Assembly: GCA_963823065.1 (NCBI GenBank)
Contig: CAWGJX010000004.1
Coordinates: forward strand, 1,280,139 to 1,344,138
DNA: 64,000 bases
Direction: 5' to 3'
Source of the DNA: an uncultured Bacteroidales bacterium
GTDB taxonomy: Bacteria > Bacteroidota > Bacteroidia > Bacteroidales > VadinHA17
Shown here: positions 1,885-59,050 of the stretch, in pieces
Layout of the letters: every line of letters starts with the position of its first letter
Position numbering within the stretch: position 1 is the first letter of the stretch
Program-made: the position numbers and the translations under genes
Notes under the pieces: generated by a model
Database searches by the model: none
What the model saw: only the letters and a program-made list of their open reading frames with translations
What the model was told of the DNA's origin: nothing

Positions 1885-2711
1885 CTAATCTTTATACACA
1901 TCTTTGGCAATTCTGTTTTATAAGCCACGAAGTGGCTTAATATGAATAACCCCTGGCGTCAGCCGGGGTACAGCTAACCCTCTGATCTCAAGCCCTGAAA
2001 GGGCTTAATATAATTCGAATTAATAAAGTAAATGAGTAATTTATTCTTCTCTCGCTACATTAATAGTTTAAAATTTGTTTTATGTCAAGCTATCGTCAAC
2101 ATCTTTATCATATTGTTTTCAGGACAAAGGACAGCCTGTCCACTATCAGACAGAATCATTCTAATGAACTCTATTCTTATATTACGGGGATAATCAGGCA
2201 AAAAAATAGTCACCTTTACCGTATAAATGGAGTTGAAAATCATCTTCATATTCTTACAGATATGAATCCATCGATTGCTCCTATAGATTTTGTGAAGGAC
2301 ATAAAGGTATCTTCCTCAATTTGGATTAAAAAAAACAATTTATTTCCTGCATTTAATGGATGGGCAGTTGGCTATGGTTCTTTTACCTGCTCATATAAGG
2401 ACATAGACAGGCTAATTGAATACATAATGAATCAACAGGAGCATCATCAAAAAATATCATTTGAGGATGAGTATAGAAAACTTCTACTGGAATACGGCAT
2501 AAAGCCAGATGAAAAGTTTTTCCCACAACTTATATATTCAGCTCCTTCAGAGCTGGGAAGTTTTTGGTAGACATCTACCCATGGCTGGCGCCAGGGGTTA
2601 TTCATATTTGGCTCTTTCAGAGCCAGCTGGAATAATAATTGAAGAGTATGTTATCAGGACTCAAAATGACGGAGTAAATTCGAAATTTTAAAAGATGTGT
2701 ATAAAGATTAG
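1885..2711. mobile_element. 827-bp unit with TIRs and a TSD that carries the HUH/Y1 gene
   Basis: CTAATCTTTATACACATCTTT at 1885-1905 is the exact reverse complement of 2691-2711. Identical 8-bp direct repeats TTCAAAAG lie at 1877-1884 and 2712-2719. Confidence 0.6.
2082..2570 (+). CDS. HUH/Y1 tyrosine transposase, REP-associated (RAYT) / IS200-like
   Basis: 162 aa. The HUH motif HLH is at residues 54-56, and the catalytic Tyr context is EYIMNQQEHH. The gene is flanked by inverted copies of CGCCAGGGGTTATTCATATT plus small hairpins. Confidence 0.8.
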   Translation: MSSYRQHLYHIVFRTKDSLSTIRQNHSNELYSYITGIIRQKNSHLYRINGVENHLHILTDMNPSIAPIDFVKDIKVSSSIWIKKNNLFPAFNGWAVGYGSFTCSYKDIDRLIEYIMNQQEHHQKISFEDEYRKLLLEYGIKPDEKFFPQLIYSAPSELGSFW

Positions 2712-3095
2712 TTCAAAAGGAGGGGAAACTTTTTTATGCAATATTTCATTCATTCCCAAAGCTTAAGTTGATGGCTATGGGGAATGGGGTGAGTATGTAA
2801 GTCCAAATGAACAGAACGAAGTGAGCTCGGCGAAGCCAAATTTCCGATCGTGAAAATGCGTCAAAAGATTGGCTCAGGGAGAATGGGTAGGGGTTGAGGT
2901 AAAAGAAAGACTACAAATCCATTAAACTCATGTCAGAGAGTAATAGGGTAACCTCAGTCGATAATGGTCTGATAGGTGGAGCCGAATTAAGTCATGGATT
3001 CCGACAGTAAATAGTTATTTAAAGTTAAAAATTATTAAAATTTATATCGGGATTCAAAAAAAGAACTAAATTTATTTCTTCCAATCAAAGGGGAA

Positions 3096-6868: not shown

Positions 6869-6969
6869 GCATATTATTTCGCGACCATCAATTACATATT
6901 TGTTAACAAATGTTGATATCTGACCTTAAGCTATCACCGTCAGGAAAATAAAATCTCTTATATTTGTTA

Positions 6970-7170
6970 TGTTTTGGTGTTGCAGTGAATTTTATGGCAC
7001 TGCAATGAAAAGGGAATGCGGTTTGAATCCGCAACAGTACCCGCTGCTGTGAAGCCCGGTCCCGCATTGCGCGGGATGATGGTTTTCTGAAATACCTGCC
7101 ACTGTTCCGATGAATTAGAATGGGAAGGCTTCAGAAAACCGGGATAAGTCAGAAGACCTGCCAGATAAAC
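6970..7170 (+). promoter_or_regulatory. Cobalamin (B12) riboswitch
   Basis: Core AAAAGGGAATGCGGTTTGAATCCGCAACAGTACCCGCTGCTGTGAAG, then GCCACTG, then the B12 box AGTCAGAAGACCTGCC at 7147-7162. It lies directly upstream of a TonB-dependent receptor gene. Confidence 0.85.
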
Positions 7171-7248
7171 CTAATATTCAATGCTTTCGGGAAAAAAAGC
7201 GCCGGATCATAACAGATTCCCACGTAAATACCCAGTAAACGCTGAATA

Positions 7249-24297: not shown

Positions 24298-24371
24298 GGT
24301 TCCGTAGCTCAGTTGGATAGAGCAACAGCCTTCTAAGCTGTGGGTCGCGCGTTCGAGCCGCGCCGGAATCA
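24298..24371 (+). tRNA. tRNA-Arg (anticodon TCT)
   Basis: I folded the complete 74-nt cloverleaf by hand: acceptor GGTTCCG/CGGAATC, D arm GCTC/GAGC, anticodon loop CTTCTAA, T arm GCGCG-TTCGAGC-CGCGC. CCA is not encoded. Confidence 0.9.
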
Positions 24372-24373
24372 CA

Positions 24374-27090: not shown

Positions 27091-28287
27091 ATGAAAAAGA
27101 TCTTTCTTATTTGTCTAATTATCTCATTTGTATCGTTCCCGAAAGTTCTGGCTCAACAATCAAATGACACTATTGCTTATCTGATTACATGTGGACCCGG
27201 GACAGAAACTTATTCTATTTATGGCCATAGCGCATTAAGAATTGCAATCCCTGCAAAACATTCTGACATAATCTATAACTGGGGAGTGTTCGATTACAAT
27301 ACAAAGAATTTCGCCTGGAAATTTGCAAAGGGCAGATTAGATTACATGCTTGATACAGAGACAACTAAAGGTTTTCTGCAGAGTTATTTTTTTGAACAGA
27401 GATATGTTTATTCACAAAGAATTAATATTGATTCAAAAGAATTACAAAAATTAACAGAACTAATAAATGAAAATCTCAAACCTGAAAACATTAAATACAG
27501 GTATGATTTTTTTTATGATGATTGTTCAACAAGGATAAGGGACCTGCTTGAAAAATCAATAGGGGATAAACTAAAATATCCTCAGCCGGACCCCGGAAGA
27601 GTGCCTACTTTCAGAGAAATGGTTGCCAAATATCAGAATCCATACCCCTGGTTAAAATTCGGAGTGGATCTTATTATGGGTTCCACAAGTGATAAAAAAG
27701 CCCATTTCAGGGATCAGATGTTCCTTCCCATTGATATGAGGATTGGATTATCAAAGACGGTAGTACAAAGGTCTGACAAAATGATTCCTCTTCTTCAGAA
27801 TCCTGAAATATTACTCGATTTCGGAAACCCTCAGGTAAAACATAGGTTTTTAACTTCTCCTCCTTTTGTTTTCACTCTTTTAATAATTGTGATTCTTATC
27901 CTCGCTGCTCAGACAAAAAGCAGAAAGATTATCAGAATAACAGATATTGTCATTTATTCTGTTTTTTCAATCCTTTCAGTGTTGATGATATTTTTTAATT
28001 TTTTCACCGATCACGATCAAATGAAATGGAATCTTAACATTATATGGCTTAATCCATTTATTCTGGTTTGTTTATTAATGCTGATATTAAATAAACCTGG
28101 TGAAATATGGTTCAGGATAGTGTTTTATATTTCAGCAGCATTTCTCGTTATTCACTTTGTTCTTCCCCAGGAATTCAACATAGGATTCTTACTTCTCGAT
28201 ATTATAATATTAATAAGGAGCTCTATGAGATCTGGTTTTGACTGGAATCCGCTTTCGCCCCCTGCCGCTTCGCGGCTGTCCCCCTAA
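27091..28287 (+). CDS. DUF4105 (Lnb N-terminal domain) membrane protein
   Basis: Signal peptide, then CGPGTETYSIYGHSALRI, which is typical of DUF4105, then C-terminal transmembrane helices. The last roughly 10 codons and the stop lie inside a repeat element. Confidence 0.65.
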   Translation: MKKIFLICLIISFVSFPKVLAQQSNDTIAYLITCGPGTETYSIYGHSALRIAIPAKHSDIIYNWGVFDYNTKNFAWKFAKGRLDYMLDTETTKGFLQSYFFEQRYVYSQRINIDSKELQKLTELINENLKPENIKYRYDFFYDDCSTRIRDLLEKSIGDKLKYPQPDPGRVPTFREMVAKYQNPYPWLKFGVDLIMGSTSDKKAHFRDQMFLPIDMRIGLSKTVVQRSDKMIPLLQNPEILLDFGNPQVKHRFLTSPPFVFTLLIIVILILAAQTKSRKIIRITDIVIYSVFSILSVLMIFFNFFTDHDQMKWNLNIIWLNPFILVCLLMLILNKPGEIWFRIVFYISAAFLVIHFVLPQEFNIGFLLLDIIILIRSSMRSGFDWNPLSPPAASRLSP

Positions 28288-28575
28288 AGGCATAGGCGTA
28301 AACTTAAGGAGTTGAATATAATAAAATAGGATAAAAATTAAGCATAAAATAGTATGTAATGTATTGAATATATGTCAGATACATTTCCCCTACTTTTAAA
28401 GGAGGGGAAACCTTTTTATGCAGTATCTCATATATCCCCAAAGCTTAAGTTTACGCCTATGCCCTAAAGGGGGAACAATTCAGTGACATTACTAAATTTC
28501 CTAAGAGGAAGTGAATTTACCCCCCTTTAGGGGGGCAAAAAAAGTTTTTGTGACTTTTGTGCCTGTAGGGCGGTA
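28258..28575. repeat. Family-A GC-hairpin repeat, copy A1, interrupted by the MITE at 28291-28461
   Basis: CCCCCTGCCGCTTCGCGGCTGTCCCCCTAAAGG ... CCCTAAAGGGGGAAC ... CCCCCCTTTAGGGGGG, then a TTTGTGACTTTTGTG arm. Homologous to copies at 43.2, 50.3, 51.3 and 58.9 kb. Confidence 0.75.
28291..28461. mobile_element. 171-bp MITE-like element with 18-bp perfect TIRs and a 9-bp flanking direct repeat
   Basis: CATAGGCGTAAACTTAAG at 28291 is the reverse complement of CTTAAGTTTACGCCTATG ending at 28461. CCCTAAAGG is present at 28282-28290 and 28462-28470. Confidence 0.7.
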
Positions 28576-36694: not shown

Positions 36695-37465
36695 ATGAAA
36701 TCTTATAAACGAAATATCTTAATTTTTATAGTATTCTCTCTTTTTGTCCGCATCGGTATTTCACAAGGTACAAACAGAGACAAATTCTATCAGGGAACAA
36801 CATACTTTACTGCAGGAAGTTATAATGAAGCGCTTCGGGTGTGGAATGAGATATATATGACAGGCTACCGGTCAGCAAATCTGGATTATAATATTGGTAA
36901 TGCTTATTTTAAGCTGAATAATATTCCGCTGGCAATCCTGTTTTACGAGAGAGCCTATCTTTTAAAACCAGCTGATGAGGATATTAATTATAATCTTCAG
37001 GTCGCCAGAACACTTACTGTTGATCGTTTTCAGGAAATTCCGCAACTTTTTTTTATAAGAGGGTATAATTTTGTTTCACTTATTCTGTCAACAAATACCT
37101 GGGCTGAAATCAGTATCATTACCTTCATATTATTTCTTCTGTCACTTTCCTTATATATTTATTCAGGCAGACATAGGGATAAAGTACTTGGATTCTGGAT
37201 TGCTCTTTTATTCATATTCATATCAGGGAGCTCGTTAGCTTTCACAATAAGAAATAAATCACTTGTTTATAATAACCACAAAGCAATTATAACAAGTCCT
37301 GTTGCAAATGGGAAAAGTTCTCCCGACAAAAGCGGAAATGATTTGTTTGTACTACATGAAGGTACAAAAGTTACAATTGATGATGAAGTTGGAGATTGGC
37401 TTGAAATAAGGCTTTCCGATGGAAACAAAGGCTGGGTTCCTGCAAATAGTCTCGTCAAAATTTAA
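36695..37465 (+). CDS. batE: BatE (TPR plus C-terminal SH3-like domain)
   Basis: TPR motif (YNIGNAYFKLNNIPLAILFYERAYLLKP), transmembrane helices, and a C-terminal SH3b-like string (GDWLEIRLSDGNKGWVPANSL). Confidence 0.75.
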   Translation: MKSYKRNILIFIVFSLFVRIGISQGTNRDKFYQGTTYFTAGSYNEALRVWNEIYMTGYRSANLDYNIGNAYFKLNNIPLAILFYERAYLLKPADEDINYNLQVARTLTVDRFQEIPQLFFIRGYNFVSLILSTNTWAEISIITFILFLLSLSLYIYSGRHRDKVLGFWIALLFIFISGSSLAFTIRNKSLVYNNHKAIITSPVANGKSSPDKSGNDLFVLHEGTKVTIDDEVGDWLEIRLSDGNKGWVPANSLVKI

Positions 37466-37527
37466 TTGCATTGCAACTAATTTAGTATATTTCAGGTCAG
37501 ATTAATTAATAGGTATCATTCCTGATC

Positions 37528-37947
37528 ATGAAAAAGCTAATTGTTATTTCATTTATTTTGCTGGCGGTACTGGCATGTAAAAAGAAAGAATTTTCGCCTG
37601 AAGGACCTACTGATGTCCGAATCAGAAACTTATCAGATCAGCCTTTCCAGGAGGTAATTGTGTCTACTTCAGAAAAAACTGAAGATATAGATACTATTGG
37701 AAATTTATCAAATGGTGCTGTTTCCGGTTATTTTCGTTTCACAAAAGCGTATCCAAAAGCAGAAATCAGTGCAAAAATTAATGTTGGAGGTACATTGGTA
37801 ACATTTACTACCGGTAAAGTTGATTATACATATCAGCAATATATCGGGCAGGACAGAATTACTTATGAAGTATATATTTCCAGTATGCCTGACAGGCAAC
37901 TTTCAATAAGTAATGTCATTCCCGAAGAACCGCTCGTTTTAAAATAG
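37528..37947 (+). CDS. Hypothetical lipoprotein
   Basis: Lipobox LLAVLACKK. The last 30 codons are duplicated at 38356-38445. Confidence 0.6.
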   Translation: MKKLIVISFILLAVLACKKKEFSPEGPTDVRIRNLSDQPFQEVIVSTSEKTEDIDTIGNLSNGAVSGYFRFTKAYPKAEISAKINVGGTLVTFTTGKVDYTYQQYIGQDRITYEVYISSMPDRQLSISNVIPEEPLVLK

Positions 37948-38153
37948 ACATAACTACGCTCCCCTCTGTGTTTCCCCATTGCTGGCGCCGATTTGGCTAC
38001 GCCGAGCTCGCAGTAGAAGGATAATTACTTGCAGCATAAAATACTGCTCTGCTCGGTTGCAATCGGTGCCTTACTTTAGCGATTTTTAGCCGGCCCTTAT
38101 TATCACGGATTTAATGATGAACCAGGCACGGATTACAAATCCGCGCTAGCTAG
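37858..38153. repeat. Direct repeat D1 (296 bp): gene 3' end plus long R repeat (R1, 37976-38153)
   Basis: Identical to 38356-38651 except for T at 38053 versus C at 38551, by my own base-by-base comparison. Confidence 0.9.
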
Positions 38154-38241
38154 TTCTCTGTGTTACTCAGTGTAAGTTCTTCATTTTTTTTGTTACACAG
38201 AGAGCCACAGAGTTTCAACAGAGAGTTTTCTGCCTTGTTGC

Positions 38242-38355
38242 CCATTGCTGGCGCCGATTTGCAATCGGTGCCTTACTTTAGCGATTTTTAGCCGGCCCTT
38301 ACTATCACGGATTTAATGATGAACCAGGCACGGATTACAAATCCGCGCTAGCTAG
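38242..38355. repeat. R2: short (114-nt) copy of the two-hairpin R repeat, lacking the 61-nt insertion
   Basis: Same as R1 and R3 minus 64 nt. Hairpins GGCGCCGATT-TGC-AATCGGTGCC and GCACGGATT-ACA-AATCCGCGC. Ends in GCTAGCTAG. Confidence 0.85.
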
Positions 38356-38651
38356 ATTACTTATGAAGTATATATTTCCAGTATGCCTGACAGGCAACTT
38401 TCAATAAGTAATGTCATTCCCGAAGAACCGCTCGTTTTAAAATAGACATAACTACGCTCCCCTCTGTGTTTCCCCATTGCTGGCGCCGATTTGGCTACGC
38501 CGAGCTCGCAGTAGAAGGATAATTACTTGCAGCATAAAATACTGCTCTGCCCGGTTGCAATCGGTGCCTTACTTTAGCGATTTTTAGCCGGCCCTTATTA
38601 TCACGGATTTAATGATGAACCAGGCACGGATTACAAATCCGCGCTAGCTAG
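38356..38651. repeat. Direct repeat D2 (296 bp): copy of the gene 3' end plus long R repeat (R3, 38474-38651)
   Basis: See D1. It contains a start-less copy of the last 30 codons and stop of ORF 37528-37947. Confidence 0.9.
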
Positions 38652-38671
38652 GGTATTTTTTACTTTTATCT

Positions 38672-38704
38672 TTTGTTTTTTCATTCCTTATATTTATACA
38701 TTTG
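38672..38704 (+). promoter_or_regulatory. Bacteroidota-type promoter candidate (-33 TTTG, -7 TACATTTG)
   Basis: TTTG at 38672-38675 and TACATTTG at 38697-38704, with 21-nt spacing, 18 nt upstream of the ATG at 38722. Confidence 0.4.
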
Positions 38705-38721
38705 CCATTATCATAAGAATA

Positions 38722-40752
38722 ATGGAGGAATTCCTTACAGCTTGTCCCAGAAACTGCTATAGCACCTGCTCATTCAGAGTACAGGTTGAAAATAACCATA
38801 TCAGAAAGATACTACCATATACTGGCAATAAAGCTACTCCGGAGGGCCCGTGTATCAAAGGTTTATCATATATCGAAAGAGCAAACTCAAAGGAAAGAAT
38901 TTTGCATCCAATGATCAGAAACTTGTCGGGGGAATTCAGCAAAATATCTACAAAGGAGGCTTATGATATTATTGCAGATAAGCTTTCGGTTATTAAAGAG
39001 AAATGGGGCTCGCAGAGTATTTTATGGTACAGAGGCAGCGGTATGTCGGGACTCACAAATGAAATCGGATCGGCATTCTGGAAAGCATTTGGTGGTACGA
39101 CACTTACCTATGGAAATTTATGCTGGCCGGCAGGACTGGAAGCAGTAAGGTTAACTTTAGGATCAGTGAAACATAATGTTCCATGGGATCTTGAAAATGC
39201 CAGAACTATAATAATCTGGGGCAAAAATCCGGCAGAAACCAACATCCAGGAAATCTCTTTTATCGTAAAGGCAAAAGAAAATGGAGCAAAAATTATTGTA
39301 ATTGACCCTTTACGTACACTTACCGCTGACAAAGCTGACATCCTTTTCAGTCCAAAACCCGGTACTGACGGTGTTCTGGCACTTGCAGTTGCAAGGATAC
39401 TGATCGACAGCGATCATATTGATAATGAATTCATTTCCAGATATGTAAAAGGCTTCAGTGAATTAAAAAAGTCGTTGCAAATTACGCCAGTTGAAGCTGC
39501 ATCGATTACATGTATTCCTGCCCAGGATATCATTGAACTGGCAACAATAATAGGGAATAGCGGACCTCTAACAATTCTTCCGGGATATGGATTACAACGT
39601 CATCAAAATGGTGGCCAGACAATACGTTCAATACTTTTACTTTCTATACTGACAGGAAACATAGGAAAAACAGGAACCGGATTTAATTATGCCAATCTGC
39701 AAAGCTATGTCTTTGATGATATTAAAGAGCCAATGTCATATTACCCTGATTCTGCTAAAGATCTTCCATTCCGCCGGACTATATCAATGACAAAACTTGG
39801 ATCAGATATGCTGAGCACCAGGGATCCTGAACTTAAGGCTATATGGATTGAAAGAGGCAATCCGGTTTTACAATCACCAGATACTAATATTGTTAAAAAA
39901 GCTTTTTCCAACCTGTCTTTTAAGGTTGTCGTTGATCAATTTATGACTGATACCGCAGCAATGGCTGATATTATTCTACCTGCCAGGAATATGTTTGAAC
40001 AGTCAGATATAATTGGTTCATACTGGTCACCATATGTACAGTTTAAACCCAGAGTGCTTGAGCCACAAGCTGATGTATCTCCTGAAAGTGAAATATATTA
40101 TCATCTGGCAAAAAGACTGAATCTTAATGTAAGCAATTCACTCATACCTGAACCCGGGAATGAAAATTTAGAACGATGGCTGGAAAAAAGGATCGCTGGA
40201 TTTACCGGGCTTACTTTGGCTCAGCTTAAACTCGCACCTGTCCTGGCTCCCGGACTTCAACAAATAGCTTATGAAGATATGAAATTCGAAACGCCGTCAG
40301 GTAAAATTGAAATTTATTCTGAGGAAGCTAAGGCAAAATGGAATATTTCTCCTTTACCTGATTATTTGGAAGTCTTCCATTCTCACGACATTAAGAATTT
40401 CCCGTTAATTTTATTGACGCCAAACACGGGTAGCCGTATACATTCGCAATTTGGCAATCTGAATATAATTAAAGAATCGGTTCCGGGTCCTGTTATCCGG
40501 ATATCACCACATGATGCGAAAAGCAGAAGAATTTTGACTGGTCAGAAAGTAAGAGTCTACAATAAAAATGGAGAGATGATAAGCCTGGCTGAAATTTCAA
40601 ACAGAGTTCCTTCAGGGGTCGTGGTATTTCCAAATGGAATCTGGTTTTGTGAAGGTGGAGGCGTAAACCGGCTTATTGATGGACATGAAACTGATATTGG
40701 ATTTGGTTCAGCTTTTCATGACACTAAAGTCGAAATTGAAAAAGTCGAATAA
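38722..40752 (+). CDS. Molybdopterin (Mo/W-bisPGD) oxidoreductase catalytic subunit with no export signal
   Basis: N-terminal Fe-S cysteine cluster CPRNCYSTCS...C, IIIWGKNPAETN, and a C-terminal PGD-binding barrel. The N-terminus MEEFLTACP has no twin-arginine motif. Confidence 0.85.
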   Translation: MEEFLTACPRNCYSTCSFRVQVENNHIRKILPYTGNKATPEGPCIKGLSYIERANSKERILHPMIRNLSGEFSKISTKEAYDIIADKLSVIKEKWGSQSILWYRGSGMSGLTNEIGSAFWKAFGGTTLTYGNLCWPAGLEAVRLTLGSVKHNVPWDLENARTIIIWGKNPAETNIQEISFIVKAKENGAKIIVIDPLRTLTADKADILFSPKPGTDGVLALAVARILIDSDHIDNEFISRYVKGFSELKKSLQITPVEAASITCIPAQDIIELATIIGNSGPLTILPGYGLQRHQNGGQTIRSILLLSILTGNIGKTGTGFNYANLQSYVFDDIKEPMSYYPDSAKDLPFRRTISMTKLGSDMLSTRDPELKAIWIERGNPVLQSPDTNIVKKAFSNLSFKVVVDQFMTDTAAMADIILPARNMFEQSDIIGSYWSPYVQFKPRVLEPQADVSPESEIYYHLAKRLNLNVSNSLIPEPGNENLERWLEKRIAGFTGLTLAQLKLAPVLAPGLQQIAYEDMKFETPSGKIEIYSEEAKAKWNISPLPDYLEVFHSHDIKNFPLILLTPNTGSRIHSQFGNLNIIKESVPGPVIRISPHDAKSRRILTGQKVRVYNKNGEMISLAEISNRVPSGVVVFPNGIWFCEGGGVNRLIDGHETDIGFGSAFHDTKVEIEKVE

Positions 40753-43224: not shown

Positions 43225-43362
43225 ACCGCAAAGCATGGATCCCCTGCCGCTACGCGGCTGTCCCCTTAAAGGGGGACCAACTCGGTGTATGTGATGAATT
43301 TATTGAAGTACTGAGAATTAGCCCCCCTTTAGGGGGGAAGGGGGGCGCGACCTTACAAGGTT
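43224..43362. repeat. Family-A GC-hairpin repeat, copy A2, with flanking CAAAG/CTTTG-type arms
   Basis: AACCGCAAAG..CCCCTGCCGCTACGCGGCTGTCCCCTTAAAGGGGGAC..GATGAATTTATT..CCCCCCTTTAGGGGGG..ACCTTACAAGGTT. Confidence 0.75.
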
Positions 43363-50270: not shown

Positions 50271-50445
50271 AACCGCAAAGTACGCTAAGAAAGCACACCC
50301 CCTGCCGCTGCGCGGCTGTCCCCCTAAAAGGGGACTAAAACTGTTCTTTAAAGGGAATTTCATTAGGTCATAAAACATAAAGCCCCCCCTTGGGAGGGTT
50401 GGGGGGTGCGACCTTTGTAAAAACCTTTGTGACTTTTGAGGTTAA
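50271..50445. repeat. Family-A GC-hairpin repeat, copy A3, a complete composite with both outer arms
   Basis: AACCGCAAAGTACGCTAAGAAAGCACA + CCCCCTGCCGCTGCGCGGCTGTCCCCCTAAAAGGGGAC ... CCCCCCCTTGGGAGGG..GGGGGGTGCG + ACCTTTGTAAAAACCTTTGTGACTTTTGAGGTT. Confidence 0.75.
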
Positions 50446-51262: not shown

Positions 51263-51394
51263 GCCCCCCAACCCCCCTAAAGGGGGGCTAATACTGTGTA
51301 TATAAGTGAATTTATCTTTAAAACTCAGCATTTTTCCCCCTTTAGGGGGATGTCCAGCTTTCCGAGTTTGTCGAGGAAAGCTGGACAGGGGGCC
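51263..51394. repeat. Family-A GC-hairpin repeat, copy A4 (variant with an extra hairpin)
   Basis: CCCCCCTAAAGGGGGG..GTGAATTTAT..CCCCCTTTAGGGGG, followed by GTCCAGCTTTCC-GAGTTTGTC-GAGGAAAGCTGGAC. Confidence 0.7.
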
Positions 51395-58941: not shown

Positions 58942-59050
58942 CCCCCTGCCGCTTCACGGCTGCCCCCCTAAAGGGGGGACTAATTCGGTTTATATGATGA
59001 ATTCATTAATATCCAGAGAATTAACCCTCCTTTAGGGGGGCAGGGGGGCA
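58942..59050. repeat. Family-A GC-hairpin repeat, copy A5
   Basis: CCCCCTGCCGCTTCACGGCTGCCCCCCTAAAGGGGGGAC..GATGAATTCATT..CCCTCCTTTAGGGGGGCAGGGGGG. Confidence 0.75.

Follow-up and report, generated by a model that had tools for sequence, protein, structure and literature searches.

The 774-nt spacer between a lipoprotein gene and a molybdopterin oxidoreductase gene of an uncultured Bacteroidales bacterium (VadinHA17; contig CAWGJX010000004.1) holds an array of small repeats in which one REPIN, a doublet of inverted repetitive extragenic palindromes (REPs), has recently been copied along with the last 29 codons of the neighbouring gene. The whole stretch of DNA that was analyzed, 64,000 nt (64 kb) in length, is referred to as the window. 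The repeated element, named R, is almost certainly a REPIN composed of two inverted REP hairpins of ~29 nt, ~54 nt apart and with a conserved 5' foot. With equally high confidence, its REP family is assigned as the cognate repeat of the HUH/Y1 transposases of TnpA_REP subclass 2.6, which correspond to group 5 among REP-associated tyrosine transposases (RAYTs). The locus belongs to a known kind, REP/REPIN with RAYT subclass 2.6, and is not a new system; worth noting are the duplication that carries a gene tail, the insert nested in a REP loop and the conservation of the REP across orders. REPs and REPINs are well studied in Proteobacteria and hardly in Bacteroidota, within the searchable literature, and the locus provides a dated, base-precise snapshot with empty sites, single-copy intermediates and a duplicate of 99% identity.

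Two segments of 296 nt (37858-38153 and 38356-38651) were found to be identical except for one mismatch (T at 38053 versus C at 38551), and their identity ends abruptly on all four sides. Repeat finding, which describes the layout as 1.59 copies of a 498-nt period, bore out the near-perfect duplication with a single T/C difference that an earlier reading of this DNA (the sequence-only reading) had claimed. The array runs in the order A, Rl1, B, Rs, A2, Rl2, followed by the conserved upstream region of the molybdopterin oxidoreductase gene, and the spacer as a whole is a pile-up resembling a bacterial interspersed mosaic element (BIME): a long REPIN with a nested insert, then the unrelated repeat B, the short REPIN and another long REPIN. 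The fold and the coordinates also agreed with the reported 88-nt spacer with its own hairpin and the 114-nt short R between the two copies. The copied part of the gene includes the stop codon, as had been read, but its 90 nt amount to 29 sense codons and the stop, where the earlier reading had counted 30 codons. The features are listed below, all on the + strand; L numbers designate the loci from other genomes used for comparison.

37528..37947 (+): lipoprotein gene, 139 aa, lipobox LAC, with signal peptide, intact; its last 90 nt (37858-37947) are the first copy of the duplicated segment A
37948..37975 (+): native spacer of 28 nt after the stop codon, part of the duplicated unit, homologous to the spacer start in L128, L133 and L138
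37976..38153 (+): Rl1, long REPIN, 178 nt, with left REP 5' half (37976-37995), insert (37996-38059), left REP 3' half (38060-38070), middle (38071-38124) and right inverted REP with foot (38125-38153)
37996..38059 in Rl1 and 38494-38557 in Rl2 (+): 64-nt insert in the REP loop, placed after GATTTG, with ends GCTACGCCGAGCTCG...GCTCGGTTG
38154..38241 (+): B, segment of 88 nt that forms a separate hairpin, in which 8 pairs and 2 further pairs are separated by one T.T mismatch
38242..38355 (+): Rs, short REPIN, 114 nt, with left REP intact (38242-38272) and right inverted REP with foot (38327-38355)
38356..38473 (+): A2, non-functional copy of the gene tail, with the last 29 codons and stop (38356-38445) and the 28-nt spacer (38446-38473)
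38474..38651 (+): Rl2, second long REPIN, equal to Rl1 except for C at 38551
38652..38721 (+): conserved operon upstream region with TTTG (38672) and TACATTTG (38697, TAnnTTTG), retained in all relatives, as is all sequence downstream of these motifs
38722..40752 (+): molybdopterin oxidoreductase gene, 676 aa, the first gene after the array (Pfam Molybdop_Fe4S4, Molybdopterin and Molydop_binding)

The sequence GCTAGCTAG occurs exactly three times in the 64 kb (38145, 38347 and 38643) and each time forms the final 9 nt of an R copy, so the earlier statement that every R copy ends in it stands. The new joint created by the duplication (38355|38356) shows zero microhomology, even with a 1-nt shift, and falls exactly at the REP foot, which is the terminus of the element. 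The first A copy is the native gene end, since 115 of the 120 lipoprotein homologues listed align with 100% of the query and 109 are 139 aa long (the remainder being 141 or 145 aa). The duplication has damaged neither the lipoprotein gene nor the predicted promoter downstream, and A2 is a dead fragment; the duplicated gene end was found in none of the close relatives compared. The C at 38551 breaks the terminal stem of the insert in Rl2, and T is the ancestral state, as in L135. Segment B resembles a repeat of an unrelated Bacteroidales metagenome-assembled genome (MAG) (L092; 44 nt at 89%). No further match to R, its hairpins or the REP was detected in the 64-kb window, all six REPs being located at the array, and shuffled sequences give an expectation of 0.

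The sequence-only reading had described R as a two-hairpin repeat with copies of 178 and 114 nt. Both descriptions hold; what was missed is that a single ~29-nt palindrome, present in two inverted copies that also pair with each other, makes up both hairpins, and that the long R is the short R plus a nested insert of 64 nt. The ends of R are inverted repeats of ~26 nt (left GCTGGCGCCGATTTGCAATCGGTGCC, right the reverse complement of GCTAGCGCGGATTTGTAATCCGTGCC), and either end also forms a hairpin by itself, 10 bp long with a G.T wobble and closed by a 3-nt loop (DNA fold z -4.1 and -3.7). Over its full length, the short R makes a single hairpin (RNA -41.7 kcal/mol, z -4.0; DNA z -3.35). Rs and the backbone of the window Rl are identical at 113 of 114 positions. 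The left end of R reads C[C/T]ATTGCTGG, and the two ends of the window R are CCATTGC... and ...GCTAGCTAG. The right end is defined by four independent flanks (TTCTC, ATTAC, GGTAT and AGTAA), each of which begins directly after CTAG. Within the window R, a REP with a C..G stem is paired with a REP with a G..C stem, and 21 of 54 close doublets are mixed in the same way.

The ~26-nt terminal inverted repeats, together with the fact that the units A-Rl and B-Rs each end in R as gene cassettes end in attC, might suggest a miniature inverted-repeat transposable element moved by a DDE transposase, or an attC-like cassette site for a tyrosine recombinase. We regard this explanation as extremely unlikely: no target-site duplication was found at four independent insertions (window Rl, window Rs, L135 and L138), the attC cores GTTRRRY and RYYYAAC are present at neither end of R, and the inverted repeats are a REP, which flanks genes of Y1/HUH enzymes rather than those of integrases or DDE transposases. 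The suggestion of the sequence-only reading that the array could be an integration site has no support: target-site duplications and attC cores are lacking, and comparison of the 774-nt spacer with phages and plasmids gave no match. A tRNA origin was also considered, the loop of the REP being similar to an anticodon arm (TTTGCAA/TTGCAAA), and was rejected; ARAGORN found no tRNA, the literature matches for the 13-mer include an unrelated tRNA-primer paper, and the similarity was judged a coincidence. As to the small structured RNAs that the sequence-only reading had also suggested, Rfam scans of the whole window at the gathering threshold and of 37400-38800 by E-value returned nothing relevant.

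Species-representative genomes were scanned with a 20-mer core of the REP (GCSGATTTGYAATCSGTGCC), and at least 118 stretches were retrieved, nearly all of them from Bacteroidota, including Flavobacterium, Salinimicrobium, Lutibacter, Myroides, Chitinophaga, many Bacteroidales and Marinilabiliales-type genera. Between genomes, only the ~29-nt unit is common and not the middle of R. The consensus of the unit is CCCG[A/C]T[A/G]GCGCGGATTTG[C/T]AATCCGTGCC, in which the foot C-C-C-G-[C/A]-T-[G/A]-G-C is conserved and fades at ~-9 from the core, where the window R ends. Two stem positions that had been left free in the search pattern covary (G..C in 139 copies, C..G in 26, mispaired in 2; 165/167 paired). 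The copies avoid coding sequence: 26 of 208 (12.5%) lie in stop-free stretches of at least 150 codons, and such stretches make up 76% of the DNA. In genomes other than this one, the REP is found on several contigs of the same MAGs, and up to 9 copies occur per 8 kb.

Among adjacent REP pairs in the fetched loci, 65 are arranged with the feet outward (54 of them closer than 300 nt), 17 with the feet inward and 42 in tandem. Whole REP doublets recur as units in L068 and L054, and R recurs as a unit in L135 and L138. Tandem arrays of REP units are frequent (L012, with four units of 134 nt; L019; L038, with ~13 units of 89 nt; L039; L064), and repeated units elsewhere usually start 0-3 nt from a REP foot and have a variable other end (L009, L012, L034, L063, L067 and L098). 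The array of L038 (6100-7140, Salinimicrobium nanhaiense) contains ~13 tandem 89-nt units with two alternating foot variants, each unit consisting of one REP and a second hairpin (CCGCTGTCAGGG...CCGCTGACAGGG).

A Y1 protein gene, or its remnants, was identified by tblastn beside the REP in 17 of the 118 stretches listed, and a rough estimate of the chance expectation for a single-copy RAYT gene in those stretches is ~0.2. In L009, L011, L027 and L063, inverted REP copies 640-690 nt apart surround an open reading frame, which encodes 176-186 aa in L009, L011 and L063 and a disrupted copy of 138 aa in L027. REPs flank the RAYT gene in 8/9 of the loci inspected, mostly inverted and with the feet outward, which is their orientation in R. 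For two of the flanked proteins, NCBIfam NF047646 (REP-associated tyrosine transposase) scores 103 and 96 bits at a cutoff of 80, and Pfam Y1_Tnp matches as well. The RAYTs beside the REP carry the motifs xH[LIV]H and YIH[QN]NP, and eight full-length proteins all retain both HUH histidines and the tyrosine of NYIHxNP. The RAYTs of Flavobacteriia (L009, L034, L011, L113 and L070) and Bacteroidia (L063, L083 and L068) share only 41-46% identity, while the cores of their flanking REPs hardly differ (GCGGATTTGCAATCCGTGCC). For REPs, which normally vary from species to species, it is unusual to be conserved across orders in this way.

The same hairpin is listed for a subclass 2.6 gene of Flavobacterium johnsoniae (GGCACGGATTGCAAATCCGCGCTATCG) in Table S1 of Quentin et al. 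2018 (PMC6006769), so the REP-RAYT pair is already on record and barely described; our full-text literature search found the REP sequence printed in no main text, only in that supplementary table. In the same work, subclass 2.6 (RAYT group 5 of Bertels et al. 2017) is described with REPs given only as 'atypical secondary structures' with copies elsewhere in the genome, and the RAYT length of 176-186 aa and the motifs found here agree with its description. It does not describe the doublet form, the phylum-wide consensus, the tandem arrays, the loop inserts or the duplicated flanking gene sequence. The GTAG or CGTC tag that REP superfamilies carry at the palindrome end (Di Nocera et al. 2013, PMC3733652) was not found in this family, which agrees with the term 'atypical' in Quentin et al. 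2018. Unlike subclass 2.6 loci, which carry a RAYT beside the REP, the 64-kb window has no such RAYT.

The REP/BIME of E. coli (Ton-Hoang et al. 2012, PMC3333891; Nunvar et al. 2010) likewise consists of an imperfect palindrome with a conserved 5' foot, and the inverted REP pairs (often of two variants) with linkers and the tandem amplification known there have counterparts in the R family. The foot is GTAG in E. coli and G[C/A]T[G/A] here (GCTG and GATA; GCTA in the right REP of the window). The breaks lie at C|T in E. coli and not here, and the REP is order-wide here and species-specific there. In the REPINs of Pseudomonas fluorescens SBW25, two inverted REPs reportedly pair into one long hairpin and are replicated together. 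Like R, these REPINs are non-autonomous and make no target duplication, but they belong with another RAYT group and another REP, and the copy described here also took 118 nt of unrelated flanking DNA.

A second Y1 gene is present in the window at 2082-2570 (+) and encodes a 162-aa IS200-like transposase (75 bits on Pfam Y1_Tnp; against the NCBIfam IS200 model it falls just short of the cutoff) with the motif YIMNQQEHH, the signature of the rare subclass 1.2 of Quentin and colleagues. It was considered as the RAYT of R and rejected, as it belongs to another subclass and has different flanking hairpins. The gene has 26-nt inverted repeats at 1939-1964 and 2583-2608, with flanks at 1884-2706 and 1759-2794, and the context of its right arm (CCCATGGCTGGCGCC) matches the left foot of R (CCCATTGCTGGCGCC) at 14/15 positions. 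The unit has terminal inverted repeats of 21 nt and an 8-nt direct repeat (TTCAAAAG), and is nested in another palindromic element, of which an intact copy lies at 28291-28461.

The comparison of orthologous loci that the sequence-only reading had called for revealed that, in relatives with 88-94% identical proteins, the gene order is kept and the content of the spacer differs, R being present or absent. The spacers are as follows.

L122-L124: 82 nt, empty
L119-L121: 161 nt, a CCGCAGAT-type palindromic element
L128, L129 and L132: 362-366 nt, an element of the CCCCCTAAAGGGGG type
L139: 287 nt, small repeats of other kinds, R absent
L135-L137 (from three independent assemblies): 309 nt, a single long R that carries the 64-nt insert
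L138: 350 nt, a single short R that lacks the insert and lies at a further position
Window: 774 nt, Rl-B-Rs-A-Rl

R therefore occurs in three contexts of one spacer among close relatives and is absent in others, and Rs and Rl are 99% identical. These observations, together with the identification of R as a REPIN whose REP flanks RAYT genes in other Bacteroidota, support the suggestion of the earlier reading that the array contains a recently active non-autonomous element. Since L132 and L138 derive from one sample, the polymorphism is one between co-occurring strains. The window Rl and the R of L135 are 90.5% identical overall (insert 96.9%, backbone 84%), and their flanking genes are 94-95% identical. 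The spacer of the molybdoenzyme operon thus varies between co-occurring strains through small mobile repeats, which matters for metagenome assembly and strain typing.

Other repeats were also recorded in this spacer. A second palindromic family of ~110 nt, which reads CCCCCTGCCGCT.CGCGGCTGTCCCCCTAAAGGGGGAC ... GCCCCCCTTTAGGGGGG..GGGGGGYGCGACC, occurs in the window at 43241-43346, 50299-50415, 51263-51350 (-) and 58943-59049, with a partial copy at 28257-28290, and fills the orthologous spacer in L128, L129 and L132. A third small palindromic element (CCGCAGATTTACGC...AATCTGCG...GATCTGCGGG) lies in the same spacer in L119-L121 (5421-5581) and L138 (~700-800). The spacer is a hot spot that has received members of at least three families of repeats in different strains.

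Upstream of the molybdopterin oxidoreductase gene, TTTG (38672) and TAnnTTTG (38697) form a predicted promoter according to the published Bacteroidetes consensus, and the array ends ~20 nt upstream of its predicted -33 element, in agreement with the earlier placement of the array just upstream of the operon promoter. A host role for the array, as a 3' stabiliser or terminator of the lipoprotein mRNA, as a promoter insulator or as a source of small RNAs, would be compatible with a mobile origin, and E. coli REPs have such roles according to the literature. The REP hairpins are stable (z -4.1 and -3.7) and co-varying, one REP scores as terminator-like, and the REP sequence has been conserved across orders while the RAYTs diverged to 41-46% identity. 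That the array is kept for such a role nevertheless seems unlikely, as close relatives manage with a spacer of 82 nt that is empty or with one that holds unrelated inserts, Rfam gives no match, and the counts of promoter-like and terminator-like signals equal the shuffle expectation.

How the duplication arose was considered from its junctions. Any route needs at least one illegitimate joint, that of the Rs end to 37858 inside the gene. We favour copying of A-Rl by single-strand cut-and-paste through an HUH/RAYT enzyme over replication switching, and give this about an even chance; the acting enzyme, the strand and the order of events are what we infer. A RAYT acting in trans would bind the REP on single-stranded DNA and make one cut after ...GCTAGCTAG, where the inverted REP has its foot; the other cut would fall 296 nt upstream, at a site of low specificity within the lipoprotein gene. 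The 296-nt piece would then be pasted where the neighbouring short REPIN has the equivalent cut site at its foot, with doubling of the last 29 codons, the spacer and the REPIN as the outcome; B-Rs perhaps arrived by the same route. The + strand is likely the lagging-strand template because of the GC skew (+0.03 to +0.05) and the gene bias (31 to 16), and on this strand the left REP lies in the binding orientation and the right end is an inverted-REP foot. By analogy, the pattern matches the behaviour of TnpA_REP of E. coli, which needs the REP, cuts the foot of an inverted REP as well as low-specificity sites more than 400 nt away, and whose strand transfer has been proposed by the authors to build tandem BIMEs (PMC3333891). 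The earlier claim that the rearrangement was directed by R is structurally supported, the junctions of the duplication lying at the R terminus. The defined terminus after GCTAGCTAG is a directly testable RAYT cleavage site, and the locus exemplifies host coding sequence carried along with a REPIN.

The same product could have been formed from the same elements by replication or recombination without a transposase, which we consider a possible explanation with a clearly smaller probability. Long hairpins are obstacles to replication, and in one version the REPIN hairpin would stall the fork and the nascent end would switch template at the hairpin base; in another, a 498-nt tandem duplication (A-Rl-B-Rs) would be followed by homologous deletion between Rl and Rs. 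The 1.59 copies of the 498-nt period fit such a history, the 3' ends of Rl and Rs share 97 nt at ~99% identity and could recombine, and REP-X-REP-X-REP arrays that fit unequal crossing-over exist, for example in L019. Against it, the unavoidable joint 38355|38356 is without microhomology, which is unusual for slippage or template switching, and matches to the base an element terminus that is set by four independent flanks. Homologous recombination between R copies was rejected as the sole cause, as it can duplicate only B-R units and not the unique gene tail. If A-Rl was copied and pasted behind Rs, two independent breaks, the right cut of the donor and the target cut, fall at R termini, a coincidence that by a rough estimate would arise by chance with a probability of ~1e-5; in the two-step route a single break falls there, with ~4e-3 by chance.

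An assembly artefact, in which one real A-Rl copy was expanded by the assembler, was also taken into account. Having three nearly identical R copies inside 800 nt makes assembly difficult, and the short-read contigs of relatives break inside R (L133, L134 and L137). The joint CTAG|ATTACTTATG, on the other hand, is absent from any single-copy arrangement, so reads must hold it; the two long copies differ by a transition, and Rs has its own substitution relative to both long copies and lacks the 64-nt insert. Because the joint is impossible in a single-copy genome and private substitutions are present, an artefact is very unlikely.

Several observations weigh against transposase-driven copying of A-Rl as set out above. 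A tblastn search of the 64-kb window with two subclass 2.6 queries returned only noise, and R has no copies in the window outside the array. Metagenome scans with the middle of R and with the start of the 64-nt insert gave no match, and the A-Rl duplication, like the array itself, is known from assembled sequence alone. The C|T cleavage rule of E. coli, tried on either strand, does not fit the breaks, which lie at G|T, G|A and G|G and, inside the gene, at A|A. We know of no system in which RAYT-driven movement of a REPIN in vivo has been shown, and the transposase-free two-step route yields the same product.

The 64-nt insert of the long R interrupts the loop of the left hairpin, with GATTTG before it and CAATC after it. 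Like inserts, 40-78 nt in size and without a gene, split REPs in six unrelated Bacteroidales MAGs (L042, L069, L076, L078, L089 and L109), with the form GATTTG | GCT[T/A]CGCCGAGCTCG ... GCTCGGTTG | CAATC and a variable interior that sometimes contains another whole REP. In the window, in L135-137 and in the six unrelated MAGs, the insert is always located after TTTG of the REP loop. Its structure is limited to a terminal stem of 6 bp (z -0.4), and a TTG repeat at both ends also permits slippage. The insert predates the split of Rs and Rl, because the inserts of the window Rl and L135 are 96.9% identical while Rs matches the Rl backbone at 113/114 positions; either Rs lost the insert cleanly or the R copies were homogenised. 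The insert would be a second small element, or a recurrent event, aimed at TTTG of the exposed REP loop, and may represent a candidate second element family of 40-80 nt with ends GCTTCGCCGAGCTCG...GCTCGGTTG. A lone copy of the 5' end of the insert was recorded at ~2815-2842 (-) of the window.

Known elements resemble parts of this organization. Elements of the insertion sequence (IS) family IS200/IS605 and the gene-less palindrome-associated transposable elements use a Y1/HUH enzyme, single-stranded DNA and subterminal hairpins and make no target duplication, and the insertion of IS200/IS605 beside a short fixed sequence with precise excision fits a 64-nt insert that follows TTTG and is cleanly absent from Rs. 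In contrast to IS200/IS605, neither R nor the insert contains a transposase gene, and the insert has one terminal stem, not a hairpin at each end. IS1397 and ISKpn1 are insertion sequences that target REPs. ISPpu9 (PMC12288879) also targets REPs, giving a mobile element inside a REP as the 64-nt insert does; the REP-targeting insertion sequences are full elements of the IS3 and IS110 families, whereas the insert described here has 40-78 nt and no gene. One-ended capture by IS91/ISCR and Helitron elements shows a constant end on the hairpin side (here CTAG) and a variable end that takes host sequence, but these are Y2 or Rep-helicase elements of kilobases in length, and the likeness is one of outcome only.

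A broader proposal, which we put forward tentatively and consider doubtful at present, is that Bacteroidota RAYTs carry variable host DNA from the REP foot and that TTTG of the REP loop is a landing site for an undescribed 40-80-nt family. The pasting of captured host DNA at another REP foot may amount to Helitron/IS91-like capture of gene fragments by a supposedly domesticated enzyme. If both fragment capture and loop landing were true, REP clusters would be self-growing nests that reshuffle gene ends and promoter-proximal DNA.

With regard to the rest of the window, exact-protein look-ups of three genes around the array returned no record. Ordinary features include a cobalamin riboswitch at 6958-7179 (+), with 88.5 bits, and a tRNA-Arg(TCT) at 24298-24372 (+).

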